The position numbers and the translations under genes were made by a program. DNA of 14,121 bases from Promethearchaeia archaeon (GTDB lineage Archaea > Asgardarchaeota > Lokiarchaeia > Sigyniarchaeales > SOKP01). This document shows, piece after piece, positions 3,411 to 14,067 of this stretch. Positions within the stretch are counted from its first letter, which is position 1. Each line of letters opens with the position of its first letter. The stretch spans positions 1 to 14,121 of the forward strand of contig JAWOFX010000152.1 of assembly GCA_046497275.1 (NCBI GenBank), in the 5' to 3' direction. Below the pieces are notes generated by a model. It was not told the origin of the DNA, ran no database searches, and worked only from the letters and a program-made list of their open reading frames with translations.

Positions 3411-5029
3411 ATGTCAGATTCTAAGGAATAATATATCCTGGCAATTGATCATGGTACATCGGGCCCCAAGAGCGCGATTGTTTCTACAAAAGGAAAGGTA
3501 ATTGATTGGGTTTTCAAGGAAGTTCCTCTTCATATGCCAGAGCCAGGAGCCGCAGAACAAGATCCAGATGATTGGTGGAATGGTATTGTAGAGGGAGTTA
3601 TTAAAATGATGTCGTCTAGCAAAGTAAGCAAGGATGATATCGTGGGTATCTGTAATATAAGTCAATGGAGCGGAACTATTCCTGTTGATAAAAAGGGGAA
3701 GAACCTCATGAATTGTATTATATGGATGGAACACGTAGAGCAGAACAAATTAATAGATTTCACAAGGGTTTACTTCAAGTTTCTGGCTATAATCTTTTCA
3801 AGATATTAAAATGGCTTAAGATAACCGGTGGAGGGCCAACTTTATCCGGGAAGGACTCTATTGCTCATATAATGTGGTTAAAGGAAAAACATCCAGATAT
3901 TTATAATGATACATATAAATTTCTCGAACCCCAAGATTGGATAATTTTTAAATTAACAGGGAAGTATGCTACATCAGAGGCAACAGCACACTTACATTGG
4001 TTAACTGATATACAAGATATTAACAATATTCACTATTCAAAGAAATTAATTAAAAAAATCAAAATACATGCAGATAAATTACCAGAGTTAAAGAAGACAA
4101 CTGATGTACTTGCTACTTTAACGCCTAAAGTAGCTAAGCAATTAGGTTTAAATCCTAATACTCCAGTAATTATGGGAGCCCCAGATTTACATTCTGCGGC
4201 AATTGGTTCTGGTGCTGTAAAGGATTATGAAGCACACTTTTGCATTGGAACCTCTGATTGGCTCATATGTCATGTACCTTTTAAAAAAACTGATATTGTA
4301 ACACAAGTAGCAAGTGCGCCCTCGGGAATTCCAGGAAGATATGTCACTATTAATGAACAAGAGATTGCGGGTGGAGCATTAAGCTATCTCCGAGATAATA
4401 TCTTATATCATAAGGATGAATTGCTTGCAGAAGAGCATGTACCCGATGTTTATAAAATATTTGATAAAATTATAGAAAAAACTCCACCGGGCTCTAATGG
4501 GCTTATTTTTACACCTTGGTTGTTCGGAGAGCGTAGCCCTGTAGATGACCATACTGTAAGAGGAGGATTATATAATATTAAATTAAATACTACGAGAGAA
4601 CATTTAATCCGTGCTGTATTTGAAGGTGTGGCATATAATGTTAAATGGCTCCTATTAGCAGTAGAAAAGTTCATCAAGAAAAGACTAAAGAAGGAAAAAC
4701 CAGAACTGATTGAGGATGGAAAAATTATACCCGCGCTTACAATTATAGGTGGGGGAGCCAATAATAAGATCTGGTGTCAAATCTTTGCAGATGTAATGGA
4801 TCGTAGGATTAAACAGATTAAAGACCCTATTCAAGTAAATGCAAATGGTGCCGCTTTTATGGCCTCTGTTGCTCTTGGATATATAAAGTGGAATGAAATT
4901 GCTGACATTGTAGAATATGCAAACATTTTCGAACCTAATCCCGAAAATAGGGAAATGTATGACAAACACTTCAGCGAGTTTAAAAATATATATAAATCTA
5001 TGGGTAAGGTGTATAAGCGCTTAAATTGA
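3411..5029 (+). pseudogene. FGGY-family carbohydrate kinase (xylulokinase-like), interrupted
   Basis: ATG 3411 reads MSDSKE, then TAA 3429-3431, then YILAIDHGTSG...EQDPDDWW...SQWSGTIPVD...CIIWM. A 1-nt deletion near 3730 (TGG ATG GA- ACA CGT) breaks the W-M-D-T-R motif. The other frame continues intact through TPWLFGERSP, RAVFEGVA and GGGANNKIWCQIFADV to TGA 5027-5029. Confidence 0.88.
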
Positions 5030-5173: not shown

Positions 5174-6430
5174 TTAATTGTACTTTTTATCAATTGTATT
5201 AATAAAGCTTAGACAAATATTCAAGAAATCTTTCAGAACTTTTTTATCTAAGTTCTCAGGTATATCTTCTGAAGAGTGCCAATTTACTGCCTTGTTTTTA
5301 TTCTTTTCTACTCCAAAAAGAGCTGTTGCTTTGTACCCATTTTCTATATATCTAACAACATCACAAGCACCAATTTTAAGATTATCAGTTCTAAAATCGA
5401 GAAAATTAGATTCATTTTCCTTAAGCTCACTAATAATTTTCTTTAGTAGTTCATTCATCTCCTTATCATAAACAATCCCATGCATATCTTTTTCTACTAA
5501 CAATATTGCCTTAGCAGCCCCACAACATTCTAGAATTAGGTTATAACAGTTATCCAAATAGCCCAATTCACCATATTTCTCAACAAATACTCTTGCTCCT
5601 TTATCACCGACCTCCTCACTTCCTTGTGAACATATCCATATCTCAACATTTCGAGGACGATGCTCAGATAAGTATTTTCCTATACCTGCAGCCACAGCGG
5701 TTCCCGCTAAATTATCATTTGCTCCCAAGACAATTTTTTTTCCTAAAAAACCCTTAACCAATAGAATGAAAAAGGGATAGAGAATCAAAATAGAAGAGAA
5801 ATATATATAATCGAGAATACTTATTGAAAAGATTGTCCACTGAAAGAGTATAAAACCTTGTTGAAAAATTAACACTCCAATAAATTTCCATAATGATATT
5901 ACGATGCTAACAATAATGAAAGCAACACCTACTCTCCCAATAAGGTATCGCGATTTTTCGTTCATACTAGCTATGTTCATTTCTTTAGCACTATCTGTAT
6001 GACCTTCTATAATGATGCGCCATTTTATTTCATTTGTTGGCTTAATTATACCAAATACATTGCTAGAAGTTTTTTTCTTAAATAAAAACCAAATCCATTC
6101 TTTCATCAATATGAGTTCAGCAATTAAAACAAATAAAGCTAAAAAAATTAAAACAGCTGTAAAAATTGGGAAAGGAAAAATTAATGGTACGAATAATGGA
6201 GAAATCCCTGCGAGAATCCCAGCAACTTTCACTAATCCTTGGGGATATAATGCTGGTCTTGTTTCAAATGTATCGATAGTAGTCTCATCACAATAATTAT
6301 CGAACTCACTTTTTATCCATTTATTCGCCGCCTTTTCTGCTTCACTGCAAGAATATCTTGGTCCAAATTTCTCACATATCTCTTCGATAAAATTATACAT
6401 ATATTCTGTTAGTGATTTATCAATTTCCAT
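5174..6430 (-). CDS. Membrane-embedded M28-family zinc metallopeptidase (aminopeptidase-like), 418 aa
   Basis: GPRYSCSEAE N-terminus and the co-catalytic Zn ligand set GHTD, GANDN, GSEE, LILE and NWHS, plus two hydrophobic insertions. SD-like GAGGT lies on the minus strand upstream of the ATG. Confidence 0.88.
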   Translation of the reverse strand: MEIDKSLTEYMYNFIEEICEKFGPRYSCSEAEKAANKWIKSEFDNYCDETTIDTFETRPALYPQGLVKVAGILAGISPLFVPLIFPFPIFTAVLIFLALFVLIAELILMKEWIWFLFKKKTSSNVFGIIKPTNEIKWRIIIEGHTDSAKEMNIASMNEKSRYLIGRVGVAFIIVSIVISLWKFIGVLIFQQGFILFQWTIFSISILDYIYFSSILILYPFFILLVKGFLGKKIVLGANDNLAGTAVAAGIGKYLSEHRPRNVEIWICSQGSEEVGDKGARVFVEKYGELGYLDNCYNLILECCGAAKAILLVEKDMHGIVYDKEMNELLKKIISELKENESNFLDFRTDNLKIGACDVVRYIENGYKATALFGVEKNKNKAVNWHSSEDIPENLDKKVLKDFLNICLSFINTIDKKYN

Positions 6431-8550: not shown

Positions 8551-9165
8551 ATGCCTAATATAGTTGAACCCGAGTTTGAGATAGATAAAAAAGGGAGAGT
8601 GCTCTGTAAATCTCATTCTAAATACGAATTTTTTAAAAAGCCAACTCTAACAAGAGCCCAAGAAATAGCTTTGGAAAAGCAATTGACATGCGAAACATGC
8701 TCTCATTATTTAAAAGATGATTGTTATTTTCCACGATCCCAGATTAACTTAATAGAGGATGATAGGAAAAATAGAAATGTATTCAAATGTAAATTATGCG
8801 GTAATAAAATTGATAGAATGTTAACTATTATCTATAAGCTATATTATAAAGAAAAATATGATATTGAAATTCCATTGGTTTGTTGCCTTTGTTATGATTC
8901 TCTTAAGAAGGATAAATTTATAGAAATCTCAAAAAAACGAATAAATTTAGCGTTTATCCCCTTTATAGTGAACATTTTTTTATGGGCTGTTATTATAATT
9001 TATAGCTATATGTTCTCCGCTATTCCACTCTCTCTCCTCTTAGTAATTATTTTTATCTTATTTAATTACGAATTATATCGATACATAAAAAAGCGGAAAG
9101 GTATAGAAAAGGGCATGAAATATTATAATAAAAACTTTATAGACTCAAAAGATGATGATTTGTGA
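8551..9165 (+). CDS. Hypothetical Cys-rich, probably metal-binding membrane protein, 204 aa
   Basis: CKSH, CETCSHYLKDDC, CKLC and CCLC motifs followed by a hydrophobic stretch of about 45 residues (likely 2 TM helices) and a basic tail. Clean ORF. Confidence 0.7.
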   Translation: MPNIVEPEFEIDKKGRVLCKSHSKYEFFKKPTLTRAQEIALEKQLTCETCSHYLKDDCYFPRSQINLIEDDRKNRNVFKCKLCGNKIDRMLTIIYKLYYKEKYDIEIPLVCCLCYDSLKKDKFIEISKKRINLAFIPFIVNIFLWAVIIIYSYMFSAIPLSLLLVIIFILFNYELYRYIKKRKGIEKGMKYYNKNFIDSKDDDL

Positions 9166-9167
9166 TT

Positions 9168-10280
9168 TTATCCTAAATTCCCTGCCCATCCTCTCACTCT
9201 TTTCCGCATATCTTCCTGATTGTTAATTATCTCTTTCAATTGTTCTGAATTTTTATTTTTAAGATTAACGAGTTTAGGTACAAAATCATAATAAATAAAA
9301 TGATTCTTACAAATTTTTGAAATGAAAGTATCCGGAATCTTTTTAGGATTATCCTTAAAATCTTGGTAATTTTCTTCCCATTTATTTAAAAACTCACCAC
9401 TCTCTTCATTATGTTCAAAGACGGGGAGAATCCCTAAACCATTTGGAGTTGTAACTGCTATATTCGCATATTTTAAAGAAAATCGATTTCCATTAAATGA
9501 TATTGCGATTCCTCCTTCAGTATTCAATCTCTCGAGCATATTAATATCTGTTATAGAATCCCCAATCGCAATCATCTCCTTTATAGGAATATTTGTCCTT
9601 TCTGAAATATTTTCCACTGCAAGTTCCTTTCTCTTACCTCCTCTCACTTTAATTTCATTCATTACTCTGAGGTATTCATTTTTCTCTCCTTTCCAAAAAA
9701 ATTCATTTAGATCTTCTATAACAGCAGCTAAATTTTTATTATTATCTATATATTTTTGAAATATTTCCTTTACTAATTTATCGACACTCTCGGTTATATT
9801 AGTTGATTTTTTTTTCAATTCTGAAATAGGAAAATCCGTACAATATACATGATCTTGGGGAATATTAAGCTCACTAGTCACTTGGTAAGCAAATTGTGAA
9901 TAACTGGTAGAAATTACAAAAACTTTCCAATCTTTATGCAATATAGCCATTAACTCTCTTATTCCCGGTAGAATGCCGAGATTATCTCGCGCTAATTCCT
10001 TAAGTTCCTCATCAGAGAAACATGCAACATACATAGGTGCCATAATTCTTAAAGTGTCTCCAGGTTGATAATTTGGAATACCTAATTTTTCTTTTATTCC
10101 CGGAGTATCAATCAAATAATCATCATATAGGGAAATCATAAAAAAGAATTCGCCCATATCATAATTTTGGAGCCCCAACTCAGATTTTTCTCCTAATAAT
10201 TTCCCTATTTCTGCTGCGAAATCAATAACAGATATCGGACCTTCGAGATCCCAACAGCAGACTTTCTTTCTTTTCGACAT
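9168..10280 (-). CDS. HAD-superfamily hydrolase, COG4030/MJ1437(EhaR)-like, 370 aa
   Basis: Motif I variant WDLEGPIS..DFA, SLYDDYL, YQPGDTL, motif II VISTSY, motif IV IGDSITD and ISFNGN. Subfamily name is from memory. Confidence 0.75.
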   Translation of the reverse strand: MSKRKKVCCWDLEGPISVIDFAAEIGKLLGEKSELGLQNYDMGEFFFMISLYDDYLIDTPGIKEKLGIPNYQPGDTLRIMAPMYVACFSDEELKELARDNLGILPGIRELMAILHKDWKVFVISTSYSQFAYQVTSELNIPQDHVYCTDFPISELKKKSTNITESVDKLVKEIFQKYIDNNKNLAAVIEDLNEFFWKGEKNEYLRVMNEIKVRGGKRKELAVENISERTNIPIKEMIAIGDSITDINMLERLNTEGGIAISFNGNRFSLKYANIAVTTPNGLGILPVFEHNEESGEFLNKWEENYQDFKDNPKKIPDTFISKICKNHFIYYDFVPKLVNLKNKNSEQLKEIINNQEDMRKRVRGWAGNLG

Positions 10281-10479
10281 TTTATCTATTTTTTTTATTT
10301 TAATAATTCCAATTATATTATTTTCGAGTAATAAAATTTAATTAAACTTTTTATTAAATAATTGATATTGAAAACTGTTTCTAATAAAAACTATGGTTAA
10401 CTAATCAAAATTTAAATTTCATCGCTAAAATTAGAATCTTTTTCTATAAAACTGTAATAGATCCAAGTATTACAAGATC

Positions 10480-10965
10480 TTATAATTTTCCAAAAATTTC
10501 TTTCAGACTTTTTTCTTTATTTTCTTTTCTGAGAATTTCTCGCCAATTAGGTTCTATTATATTAAAAGCTTGAATTGTTAATTCTTTGATTTCCTCATCC
10601 TCTGAATTTAAAAAAGAAGAAATATATGCAAGTGCTCGCTTATCCTTTATTCTCATAAGGCTTTCTATTATTGTTATTATTCTATATTTATTAGGATAAT
10701 CTTTATTTTGTTCATTATTTAACCTTTCAATAATCGCCCTAGTAGCTTTTGGATTTCCTATTCTACCTAATGCTTCTATTAAATGATTTACAACATTAAA
10801 ATTCTCTTCTTTTAATAAGGCTTTTACCATAAGATTTACAGCTCGACCGTCTTGCATATACCCAAGGGATCTTACTGCTTCTACTCGATCTTCCCAGTGC
10901 TCAGCATGAAACATTTCTCTAATTAATTCATTAAAATCCGCATCTCTTGACTTTTCTTCTGACAT
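10480..10965 (-). CDS. HEAT-repeat (PBS-lyase-like) protein, 161 aa
   Basis: Repeats RVEAVRSLGYMQDGRAVNLM, LIEALGRIGNPKATRAI and IIESLMRIKDKRALAYI. Confidence 0.85.
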   Translation of the reverse strand: MSEEKSRDADFNELIREMFHAEHWEDRVEAVRSLGYMQDGRAVNLMVKALLKEENFNVVNHLIEALGRIGNPKATRAIIERLNNEQNKDYPNKYRIITIIESLMRIKDKRALAYISSFLNSEDEEIKELTIQAFNIIEPNWREILRKENKEKSLKEIFGKL

Positions 10966-11100
10966 CTCTAAGTTTCAAAATATTTTTGATTTTATTATAA
11001 ATTGATGTTTATTAATCATAATTGCATATAGGAATCTTCAGAATTTATTAAAAGAGAAATTTTATGAGGAGAAAAAAGATTCTAGAAATAAAAATAAAAA

Positions 11101-12423
11101 TTATTTAGATAATAAGGAATTCATATGATCAATTCTTTTCTGAAGTAAAGATTGAGTTCCTACATCTTTTCTATGAAATAAATTTCCGTGGATAAATTCT
11201 ACACCTTTTTCTGCTATTTGTTCTGCTTTTTCTAAAGTTTTTTCTATTCCTAAGACACCTATAGCTCGCGAAGTGGTGGTATATATATTACCATCTTTTT
11301 TATACACAGATGCATAATAATATTTTGACCCAGCTTTTTTCAAACCATCCTCATCAATAGAGATTAATTGATCCTTTTGAGGAGATTTTGGATAACCTTT
11401 AGGTGCCAAATATTTACATACAGTTGCTTTATTTTCAAATTCTATATCAATGGTTAAATTTTCATTAATTATCCTATTACAGATATCAACAAAATTTGTT
11501 TTTAATATTGGTAAAATATTCATTGCTTCAGGATCACCGAGTCTTGCATTAAACTCAATTAACTTGATTCCTTTAGTAGTTTTCATAAATTGACCATATA
11601 AAAAACCCTTATATTTTGTGTTTATTTCTGCTTTAATGGCCGCAACAACTTGTTTCATATCTTCTAATGCTCTCTCCACATCATCTTCTGTAATAAAGGG
11701 CATTAGATGATTTGCCATAGAATAGGATCCCATCCCTCCAGTATTAGGACCCTCATCTCCTTCATATGCTCTTTTATGATCCTGTACTAAGGGGCTACTT
11801 ACGACGTTCTTTCCATCAACGAAAGTCTGAAGTGTAAATTCCTCTCCATCCAATTTTTCCTCTAGAATAAAATGCTGCTTTTGCTCAACTAGTTTTTTAC
11901 AATACTCAATCATGTCTTTCTTACTAAAAAGATGATCCCCGAATACTTTTACTCCTTTTCCGCCTGTTAATCCATCTGGTTTAACAACTAAATTTTGCGC
12001 CCCTATCTTGTCTATATATTCTTCAACACCTTCCATAGATTTATAGCTTTTACATTCCGCATTGGATTGTATCTTATATTTTTCTAATAAATTTCTCATA
12101 AAAATTTTTGAACCTTCAATCTGGGCTGCTTCTATTTTAGGTCCAACACAAGCAAATCCATTACTCTCTAGAGCATTTACAATCCCCACGCAAAGAGGAT
12201 TTTCAGGTCCTATGACCGCAAAATCAATCTTATTTTCTTTAGAAAATGCTATAATTTCTTTAAAATCCGTTTCTGAATGAATTTTTATACGGTGTCTGCT
12301 TAAATCATCCAATCCAGCATTTTTAAAACTCATAAAAGCATATAAATCTGCCCCGCCATTAACTAAAGCCTCTCCAATAACATGTTCTCGAGCTCCATGT
12401 CCAACAACCAAAACATTTACCAT
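11101..12423 (-). CDS. purD: Phosphoribosylamine--glycine ligase (archaeal type), 440 aa
   Basis: GHGAREH, VIGPENPL, AAQIEGSK, VVKPDGLTGGKGV, EEKLDGEEF, QDHKRAYEGDEGPNTGGMGSYS, EFNARLGDPEA and FHRKDVG. Confidence 0.97.
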   Translation of the reverse strand: MVNVLVVGHGAREHVIGEALVNGGADLYAFMSFKNAGLDDLSRHRIKIHSETDFKEIIAFSKENKIDFAVIGPENPLCVGIVNALESNGFACVGPKIEAAQIEGSKIFMRNLLEKYKIQSNAECKSYKSMEGVEEYIDKIGAQNLVVKPDGLTGGKGVKVFGDHLFSKKDMIEYCKKLVEQKQHFILEEKLDGEEFTLQTFVDGKNVVSSPLVQDHKRAYEGDEGPNTGGMGSYSMANHLMPFITEDDVERALEDMKQVVAAIKAEINTKYKGFLYGQFMKTTKGIKLIEFNARLGDPEAMNILPILKTNFVDICNRIINENLTIDIEFENKATVCKYLAPKGYPKSPQKDQLISIDEDGLKKAGSKYYYASVYKKDGNIYTTTSRAIGVLGIEKTLEKAEQIAEKGVEFIHGNLFHRKDVGTQSLLQKRIDHMNSLLSK

Positions 12424-12687
12424 TTTGAATCAGATTTGGAACTATTATTTCAATTATAACATTTAATGATTTTTCAAATAATAATATATTAATTAATAAT
12501 ATTCTAAAAATTAGAATCTTATTTCAGAAATAGATAAAATGTGTAAATTTTTAATGATTTTAATTCTATAGTTAATAATATTTAGTCAATTCGATTAAAT
12601 AGGGACGAATATTAATCATAATAGAGTTTTTCAAATTCAAAATTAAATAATTATTGTTATTATAAATTATTAAAGTGATGATAAAAG

Positions 12688-14067
12688 ATGTATCTGAAGC
12701 AAATTATTAATAATTGGAAAAATCCAGAATTATTTGAAAAAAAAATATCAATAGATAAAAATAATATTCTGAAACTCATAGCAGCAGCTCATTGGGCTCC
12801 TTCTGCTGAAAATCAACAAGTTTGGAAATTTTTAGTAGTTGATAAGAGGAAGATTAAGGAGATTGTTAAAGAAGCGGTTAATAAACAAGATCCCAGATTA
12901 AGCGCGACTAAGCATAAAATTGAAAAACCAATATTAAATGCAAAATTTGTTTTTAGTACTGAAAATTTTGACGCATTAAAAGATAAATATAAAGATTTTA
13001 TTGAAGATTCTCATGAAAATGATATAAGGTGTGCAGAAACAGCTTCTCTTTTTATTATTTATATCCACTCGAAAAAATTTTTAGGAAATACATTTGGAGC
13101 GAGTGAAATTGGAGCTGCAGTGATTAATACGATTATCGAATCATATAACTTAGGATATAATTGCAGATGGATTAGGAATTTTGATAGAAAATATCTTATA
13201 GAAAATCTTAACATTCCTGATAACTATATAATTAATTCAATTCTAGCTGTTGGGAGGGAGAGAGAAAGCGAAAACCTTCTGGAAATTGATAAAAAAGACC
13301 TTAATGATTTTTTCTATATTAACATGTGGGAAAATATTGGTGATTTTTCAAATTATCAAAATCAACAAGATTTTAATGAATATGATGTAGAAGCTGTTGA
13401 CGCAATTCTTGACAGACGTTCTATTAGGGATTTTAATGAAGAAAAAAATATTCCCCGGGGTATTAAATATGAATTAATGAAAGCTGCAATAATGGTTCCC
13501 CTTACAATTTCTAAACCATATATAAAAATCATAATGTTAGAGGATTCAGATAAGATTCAACAAATAGCTAACAATTCTAAAATAGTAATTAGAAGACAAA
13601 AACATGTTCAACAAGTTCCACTAATATATGTATTAGCCTATGATTGTTCTAATAATTCAGCCGCTTTTTACTCTGAGGGTGATACTGGAGCTATAATTCA
13701 GAACATTCTTTTAAGAGCTCATTCCTTAGGTATCGGTTCATGTTGGATTGGTGCATTTAACCGTGAAATGACTAAGAACATATTAAATATTCCCGAATAT
13801 TGGCACATCCCGACCTTAGCGGTTCTAGGATATCCAAATGATTATCCGCCTCCAACTCCTCGAAAAGATTTAGGAAAGATTTGTTATTATAATAAATGGA
13901 AAAATCGGATTAAAAAACGAAAAAGAAGCCTAATGCCTTCCTCACACTTTTTAAGTATTCTCTTTCGCAGAATGAGAAACGGAGAACAAAAATCAATTTT
14001 AAGAGAGCGAAAAGTTGGACAAATAAAAAATATACCAGAATTTCAAAATTTAAAAGAATCTGAATAA
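12688..14067 (+). CDS. Tandem two-domain nitroreductase-family flavoprotein, 459 aa
   Basis: Domain 1: AAHWAPSAENQQVWKFLVV and GAAVINTIIESYNLG. Domain 2: AILDRRSIRDF, DTGAIIQNILLRAHSLGIGSCWIGAF and LAVLGYP...PRK. Confidence 0.9.
   Translation: MYLKQIINNWKNPELFEKKISIDKNNILKLIAAAHWAPSAENQQVWKFLVVDKRKIKEIVKEAVNKQDPRLSATKHKIEKPILNAKFVFSTENFDALKDKYKDFIEDSHENDIRCAETASLFIIYIHSKKFLGNTFGASEIGAAVINTIIESYNLGYNCRWIRNFDRKYLIENLNIPDNYIINSILAVGRERESENLLEIDKKDLNDFFYINMWENIGDFSNYQNQQDFNEYDVEAVDAILDRRSIRDFNEEKNIPRGIKYELMKAAIMVPLTISKPYIKIIMLEDSDKIQQIANNSKIVIRRQKHVQQVPLIYVLAYDCSNNSAAFYSEGDTGAIIQNILLRAHSLGIGSCWIGAFNREMTKNILNIPEYWHIPTLAVLGYPNDYPPPTPRKDLGKICYYNKWKNRIKKRKRSLMPSSHFLSILFRRMRNGEQKSILRERKVGQIKNIPEFQNLKESE

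Follow-up and report, generated by a model that had tools for sequence, protein, structure and literature searches.

Nitroreductases (NTRs) generally follow a two-electron ping-pong mechanism between a reduced donor and an acceptor, and in NfsB the active site is lined by Phe124 of the partner subunit. A single-chain version of this design is represented by the Acg/FDO subgroup, which includes M. smegmatis Acg (2YMV), the M. tuberculosis proteins Rv2032, Rv3131, and TyzC, and P. rubra OxzB. Members of this subgroup are monomeric, have one active site and a lid, and mimic the NTR homodimer (PMC10404671; PMC11841060). Acg is an FMN-binding protein that is unable to use NAD(P)H and may serve to sequester flavin (PMC11841060; PMC12855090). 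In the canonical dimer, the FMN pocket lies at the interface: the ribityl phosphate is held by an N-terminal Arg-x-Ser-x-Arg motif together with a C-terminal Arg, the ring lies against the β3 backbone, and the pocket is closed by a loop from the neighboring monomer (PMC8484813). The neighbor also supplies the fifth strand of each sheet, and the opening for the substrate is formed by a middle region that protrudes (PMC8484813). In NfsA, one subunit contributes Arg15 and Lys167, and the other contributes Ser41 (PMC8286842).

The gene described here is located in a 14,121-nucleotide stretch of DNA from a Promethearchaeia archaeon (the whole stretch is referred to as the window; its G+C content is 30%). 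The predicted protein, P0001, matched PF00881 (Nitroreductase, NTR) in two stretches, with 116.2 bits relative to a gathering cutoff of 23.5. Like the Acg/FDO proteins, P0001 is a single chain of two NTR-like halves with a lid-like insertion; its predicted model matched 2YMV, and the logic of its motifs yields a single flavin site, which together suggest an Acg-type architecture. The differences were in sequence, size, and taxonomy. Specifically, the curated Acg/Rv3131 model NF047509 (Rv3131_FMN_oxido) scored 23.5 bits on aa 30 to 54 (25 residues), relative to a cutoff of 199, and 2YMV was absent from the results of both domain-profile searches at an E value of ≤0.001. P0001 has 459 aa, compared to about 330 to 370 aa in Acg-type proteins, and both of its halves are still recognizable as PF00881 domains. 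Moreover, the P0001 family is Lokiarchaeal, whereas the Acg/FDO subgroup is mainly actinobacterial. The single-site fused-NTR architecture is already known from Acg/FDO; the P0001 family looks like an Asgard version of it and probably had an independent origin.

A second fused two-domain NTR fold is that of 3EO7 (Anabaena variabilis Ava_2154) and the SagB-like two-domain proteins. 3EO7 also aligned with the model over both halves, but the sequence relationship was again remote: TIGR03605 (SagB-type dehydrogenase) scored 30.4 bits relative to a cutoff of 78.4, and 3EO7 was not retrieved by the domain profiles. The scores of two other curated models, NF008033 (NfsA, oxygen-insensitive NADPH nitroreductase; 51.1 bits, cutoff 223) and TIGR02476 (BluB, 5,6-dimethylbenzimidazole synthase; 57.7 bits, cutoff 150), were likewise below their cutoffs. 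The best sequence relatives of both halves were small homodimeric NTRs such as 3G14 (Clostridium novyi), 4DN2 and 4G8S (Geobacter), and 8CQT (BT_1316), which differ from P0001 in that they have a single domain, must dimerize, contain two equivalent FMN sites, and have no insertion like that of P0001 domain 1. A metagenomic single-domain protein of 212 aa (P0046) carried the full motif set and a C-terminal tail similar to that of P0001.

Other tandem NTRs were found as well. Three symmetric fusions (P0054, P0094, and P0146) have two PF00881 domains per chain, as P0001 does, but each of their halves keeps R-x-S-x-R-like, APSxxNxQ, and C-terminal basic motifs, and the halves of P0001 do not. These three proteins are recent duplications with two presumably live sites. 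Because they keep both motif sets, the asymmetry of P0001 does not come from fusion itself but is a specific, conserved state. In the ESM Atlas, a cluster of 424-aa tandem NTRs from Methylomirabilota matched the model with TM scores of 0.76/0.81 over 380 residues. We found no description of the P0001 family in the literature on pseudodimers and on nitroreductase in Lokiarchaeota.

Gene extent, domains, and motif pairing

The positions of the gene and its features are listed in Table 1. A sequence-only reading of the window had assigned the fused NTR to positions 12688 to 13910. This interval was too short, as the ORF reaches position 14067 (stop codon at 14065 to 14067), 52 aa beyond it. The added part forms a strongly basic tail with the pattern KRKRS..SILFRRM..ILRERKVG..IPEF, in which S423, L438, R439, and G444 were invariant in the alignment of homologues (A1, described below). 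The tail belonged to the lower-confidence regions of the predicted structure, and a search with the tail alone against PDB and Pfam gave zero matches. Shorter tails resembling it were present in the single-domain relatives P0046, P0048, and P0050.

Table 1. Features of the fused NTR gene and its upstream region (window coordinates; invariance refers to alignment A1)
Feature	Coordinates	Strand	Remarks
purD	11101-12423	-	divergent from the NTR gene
AT-rich intergenic region	12424..12687	.	shared with divergent purD
Fused two-domain NTR-fold protein P0001	12688..14067	+	complete ORF, 459 aa plus stop codon; full-length homologues 444-464 aa
Domain 1, NTR fold	12688..13332	+	aa 1-215; own FMN-phosphate and ring motifs lost, partner-side loop kept
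W10-K11-N12-P13-E14, degenerate R-x-S-x-R equivalent (dead site)	12715..12729	+	from alignment of halves and conservation
WAPSAENQQVW, W36-W46, putative partner-side loop of live FMN site	12793..12825	+	P38, S39, N42, Q44 invariant
Domain-1 insertion, about 55 residues	12877..13044	+	aa 64-119; gap opposite domain 2 in hhalign alignment
CRWIRNF, C159-F165, degenerate SCWIGAF equivalent	13162..13182	+	R160 (97%) for C352, R163 (95%) for G355
Interdomain linker	13333..13392	+	aa 216-235; lower confidence, pLDDT block means 74-88
Domain 2, complete canonical NTR monomer, predicted FMN-binding half	13393..13911	+	aa 236-408
RRSIR, R243-R247, putative FMN phosphate/ribityl motif	13414..13428	+	D242, R243, R244, R247 invariant; role per PMC8484813
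PLTISKP, P271-P277, degenerate P-S-x-x-N-x-Q equivalent (dead site)	13498..13518	+	from alignment and conservation
GSCWIGAF, G350-F357, strand with backbone predicted to face isoalloxazine ring	13735..13758	+	G350, C352, W353, G355, F357 invariant
P391-R392-K393, putative C-terminal phosphate-binding Arg	13858..13866	+	R392 invariant
C-terminal tail, conserved and basic	13912..14064	+	aa 409-459 (51 residues); outside the earlier interval

The two domains were homologous to each other, both by BLASTP (E value of 3e-9) and by profile-profile comparison with hhalign (probability of 99%, E value of 7e-18). The top PDB match was 3g14 for the domain 1 profile (A2; E value of 2.5e-22) as well as for the domain 2 profile (A3; E value of 1.2e-20). 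Structural comparison with VIA-align matched domain 1 with 3ge6_A over model residues 1 to 213 (165 aligned, rmsd of 1.9) and with 2fre_B over residues 2 to 217. Domain 2 matched 8cqt_A in 163 of 163 residues over model residues 235 to 404 (rmsd of 1.6) and 4dn2_B over residues 230 to 405 (rmsd of 1.8). The hhalign alignment had a gap in domain 2 opposite the domain 1 insertion, in which D68 and R70 were invariant and L71, P81, F87, D99, Y101, and C115 were near-invariant.

The sequence-only reading had proposed that the two domains lost complementary sets of NTR motifs. The strings that it quoted were all located where it had placed them: in domain 1, NWKNPELF (aa 9, position 12712), WAPSAENQQVW (aa 36, 12793), and CRWIRNF (aa 159, 13162), and in domain 2, RRSIR (aa 243, 13414), VPLTISKPY (aa 270, 13495), SCWIGAF (aa 351, 13738), and PRK (aa 391, 13858). 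Its pairing of these motifs was borne out when the halves were aligned. Specifically, W10-K11-N12-P13-E14 aligned with R243-R244-S245-I246-R247, P38-S39-A40-E41-N42-Q43-Q44 aligned with P271-L272-T273-I274-S275-K276-P277, and N158-C159-R160-W161-I162-R163 aligned with G350-S351-C352-W353-I354-G355. The statement that domain 1 has no PRK motif was roughly right, but D201-K202-K203 aligned with P391-R392-K393; K203 was kept in about 75% of the homologues, and the position matching the invariant Arg392 varied.

A single complete FMN motif set and its predicted structural setting

A word-indexed search of 5.8 billion proteins yielded about 40 full-length homologues of P0001 (444 to 463 aa) with 33 to 92% identity, and all of the named ones were from Promethearchaeota/Lokiarchaeota MAGs. 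Two further tandem members with 34% identity came from an exhaustive HMMER search of 1.8 billion representatives; beyond these, the same search returned only single-domain NTRs or unrelated fusions. Alignment A1 contained 40 sequences, including one of the members with 33 to 34% identity (P0042); the other two (P0044 and P0045) were outside it. All three of these distant members had the same reciprocal motif pattern as P0001. In total, about 43 homologues showed the pattern, which the earlier reading had put forward as a test of its proposal, and none of the 40 aligned sequences was without it. The motifs retained were DRRSIR, GSCWIGAF, and PxPR in domain 2, compared to APSAxNQQ alone in domain 1.

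The domain 1 and domain 2 residues marked in Table 1 were invariant throughout A1. Conservation was also measured as the Henikoff-weighted frequency of the top residue at 21 live-site positions and the 21 symmetry-related dead-site positions, and the means were compared to those of 20,000 random position sets. The live-site mean was 0.92, relative to 0.58 for the remainder of the two domains, and 0 of the 20,000 random sets were as high. The reciprocal pattern is beyond chance. Because it is conserved across the family, the protein is under selection and is not the product of a decaying gene. Thus, one part of the claim that P0001 is specialized rather than randomly decayed held up; the other part, a repurposed second pocket, fared less well, as described in the next section.

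In the motif reading, a complete and invariant FMN motif set was present for one site only. Since domain 2 holds all of the same-chain elements and domain 1 holds the neighbor-side loop, the retained motifs make up exactly one complete site, and this site agrees with the canonical FMN site (PMC8484813, PMC8286842), as the sequence-only reading had supposed. Judged from these motifs and the predicted model, P0001 very probably has one flavin site instead of the usual two, and the expected stoichiometry would be one FMN per chain (1:1).

The AlphaFold2 model, which was built on A1, had a mean pLDDT of 90.3 and a pTM of 0.92. Each half of the predicted model matched many NTR chains with Z scores of 16 to 22, and the model displayed the α+β NTR fold with the two-fold pairing of halves. 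As a whole, it matched two solved structures of fused NTRs across both halves, namely MsAcg 2YMV (Z score of 21.6, 255 aligned, rmsd of 3.3) and 3EO7 (Z score of 20.8, 293 aligned, rmsd of 2.7, structure-based identity of 17%). Because the model superposes on fused NTRs over both halves, the prediction is that these halves form an intramolecular pseudo-dimer, in agreement with the proposal of the sequence-only reading. It is the monomer model that predicts pairing within one chain rather than a domain-swapped oligomer. A prediction with two protein copies and two FMN molecules scored 0.00 (mark of 0.42) and was uninformative for or against self-association.

The best explanation overall, which we regard as probable, is that P0001 is a monomeric NTR-superfamily flavoenzyme in which two fused NTR-fold domains mimic the usual homodimer, with one FMN site and a second pocket that is a structurally maintained relic. 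Domain 2 would provide R243, S245, R247, and R392 to the ribityl phosphate and the G350 to G355 strand backbone under the isoalloxazine ring, and domain 1 would provide the partner-side P38-S39-x-x-N42-x-Q44 loop. The domain 1 insertion (aa 64 to 119), with its invariant D68 and R70, may act as a lid or substrate wall that shapes the entrance of the live site; we infer this role from the protruding region of NfsB-type enzymes. Turnover would be expected to proceed as in other NTRs, with two electrons passing in a ping-pong fashion from a reduced donor to an acceptor at the single FMN. The status of P0001 as an enzyme is not guaranteed, by analogy with Acg, its closest architectural analogue, for which we know of no demonstrated enzymatic activity.

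If P0001 is such a monomeric single-site flavoenzyme, it would clearly illustrate, in nature, how gene fusion turns a symmetric homodimeric flavoenzyme into an asymmetric monomer with a single site, with one half specialized in holding FMN and the other in closing and decorating the active site. This transition appears to be independent of the Acg/FDO line of mycobacteria and of the SagB-like line. The family would help in understanding single-chain nitroreductases and in engineering them, and it would represent one more uncharacterized redox enzyme in the metabolism of Asgard archaea. No new kind of biology follows unless the second pocket binds something, and P0001 is a real but fairly ordinary variant.

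The second pocket and competing explanations

In the second, or dead, site, the phosphate-binding R/S/R triad was replaced by W/N/variable residues, and the position of the C-terminal Arg was variable. The equivalents of the flavin-facing residues Cys352 and Gly355 were Arg160 and Arg163 in 95 to 97% of the homologues. Flavin should be excluded from this pocket because an Arg replaces the glycine on which the ring lies. Thus, the symmetry-related pocket would no longer bind flavin, and Arg160 and Arg163 would most likely plug the former flavin slot. A complementary pattern of loss is also what would be expected without any new function: once a single element is lost, its site is dead and the remaining elements of that site are free to change, and the other site stays fully constrained, so reciprocal decay is the default after one site dies.

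The main competing explanation is that the second pocket was repurposed for a substrate, an effector, the anionic tail of the donor, or a partner protein, which would make P0001 an asymmetric and possibly regulated enzyme. A subset of the dead-site residues was in fact kept like active-site residues (P13 in 92%, R160 in 97%, R163 in 95%, P271 in 97%, and P277 in 91% of homologues, together with I162), as was K280 (93%), and the R/K-x-I-R-N-F segment was retained even at 34% identity. In addition, the pocket would be cationic (K11, R160, R163, K203, K276, and K280), which would suit an anionic ligand. However, an Arg in place of the flavin-facing Gly serves as well for a plug as for a ligand binder, and the N-terminal and helix-B equivalents varied freely in distant members. 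The conservation analysis of the dead pocket that the sequence-only reading had called for also went against repurposing: the dead-site mean was 0.66, relative to the background of 0.58, and 6.7% of the random sets were equally high, so the set was not significantly above ordinary positions. There was no conserved partner gene either, since synteny with purD was confined to the close clade and the neighbors were different in the L006, L008, and L009 loci. On balance, repurposing seems unlikely, and the plug is the more likely role for Arg160 and Arg163. A narrower version, in which Arg160, Arg163, and several Lys residues form a dedicated anionic-ligand site for the phosphate/glutamyl tail of the donor or for an allosteric effector, is somewhat less likely again. 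If it were true, one of the two former flavin sites in the chain would dock the donor and the other would carry out catalysis, which to our knowledge has not been described for nitroreductases.

A different possibility is that P0001 is a noncatalytic flavin holder or sensor, with one bound FMN that serves in storage or redox sensing. This idea has been proposed for Acg, which has a restrictive lid and has been discussed as a flavin-sequestering protein (PMC11841060, PMC12855090), and the Lokiarchaeal protein appears to have the same monomeric single-site design and a lid-like insertion. However, P0001 has no sequence kinship to Acg by NF047509 score or by domain-profile recovery of 2YMV, domain 2 is closest to ordinary small NTRs, and the invariant D68 and R70 of the putative lid look more like substrate-binding residues, which makes a holder or sensor improbable. 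The least probable explanation, that both pockets bind flavin (the second noncanonically) or that the chains form a domain-swapped homodimer, has a precedent in the two intact motif sets of P0054, P0094, and P0146 but is very hard to reconcile with the altered phosphate triad and variable C-terminal Arg position of the second site, the Arg at the flavin-facing Gly position in 95% of homologues, and the confident prediction of the monomer as an intramolecular pair (pTM of 0.92).

Origin, distribution, and gene neighborhood

Full-length matches to P0001 were found in only 6 of 301 sampled genomes of the phylum, all six from the family to which the window belongs; the gene was missing from a 97%-complete genome of the same genus. 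Thus, the gene is a patchily distributed accessory gene. Identical pieces of the ORF (151 to 240 nt) were found in contigs from three metatranscriptome runs on salt lakes (two studies), which indicates presence in RNA libraries only; gaps in this coverage of the gene carry no meaning.

In the tree of NTR domains, the sister of the domain 2 clade was P0046 (SH-aLRT of 99), and the domain 1 clade was long-branched (stem of 1.1), with a placement that was not supported. The two clades had congruent internal branching, suggesting a single old fusion after which the halves co-evolved. Since both domain profiles share 3G14 as their best PDB relative, an internal duplication with accelerated change in domain 1 is favored over a fusion of two paralogues, although it is not proved. 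A stand-alone domain 1 protein was not found with the query used; only P0040 (298 aa) and P0041 (278 aa, labeled partial) ended soon after domain 1. The halves of P0054, P0094, and P0146 were sisters within each protein. Because these proteins have sister halves and keep both motif sets, NTR fusion has occurred repeatedly, and asymmetry is an additional step. Single-domain NTR paralogues related to domain 2 are also present in the genome, at G000:C43:28885-29448 and G000:C172:111679-112254. The match in the latter contains four in-frame stops, and it may be a pseudogene or span two frames.

The divergent purD/NTR pair recurred in three homologous loci (L001, L002, and L004; 49 to 65% identity). 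The order of a HAD-like hydrolase gene, a gene for a 161-aa HEAT-repeat protein, and purD beside the NTR gene was seen in the window (8551 to 12423), in L001 (1015 to 5749), and in L004 (2777 to 5899). In both the window and L001, but not in L004, the HAD gene was preceded by an unannotated ORF of about 200 aa. The purD/HEAT/HAD order was not seen around the members with 34 to 42% identity. We therefore rejected the gene neighborhood as a functional clue, as these genes recurred only in the close clade and their arrangement reads as plain synteny.

Genes for a corrinoid protein and a URO-D-type methyltransferase adjoined the homologue in L002, and a URO-D gene adjoined the one in L009; in the window, these genes are 9 to 11 kb away. 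A link to corrinoid/URO-D genes, which were nearby in these three loci, was too inconsistent to serve as a basis for function. A few kilobases downstream of the homologues were genes for Arf/Ras/Roc-type small GTPases (L001, 10079 to 11083; L002, 11539 to 12543; L004, 10475 to 12037), which are a typical Asgard signature. A 380-aa multi-Fer4 protein also recurred downstream in L001 and L002.

Elsewhere in the window, positions 3713 to 5029 contain an FGGY-type sugar kinase ORF with a TTG start. The first position that it matches in the N-terminal Pfam profile is 131 of 245, and the kinase N-domain may lack its first third or have it in another frame. The corrinoid/URO-D/FGGY cassette is bracketed by two M28 peptidase ORFs on the minus strand, located at 307 to 1113 (268 aa) and 5174 to 6430 (418 aa), and the match of the 268-aa ORF to the family profile is confined to its C-terminal portion.
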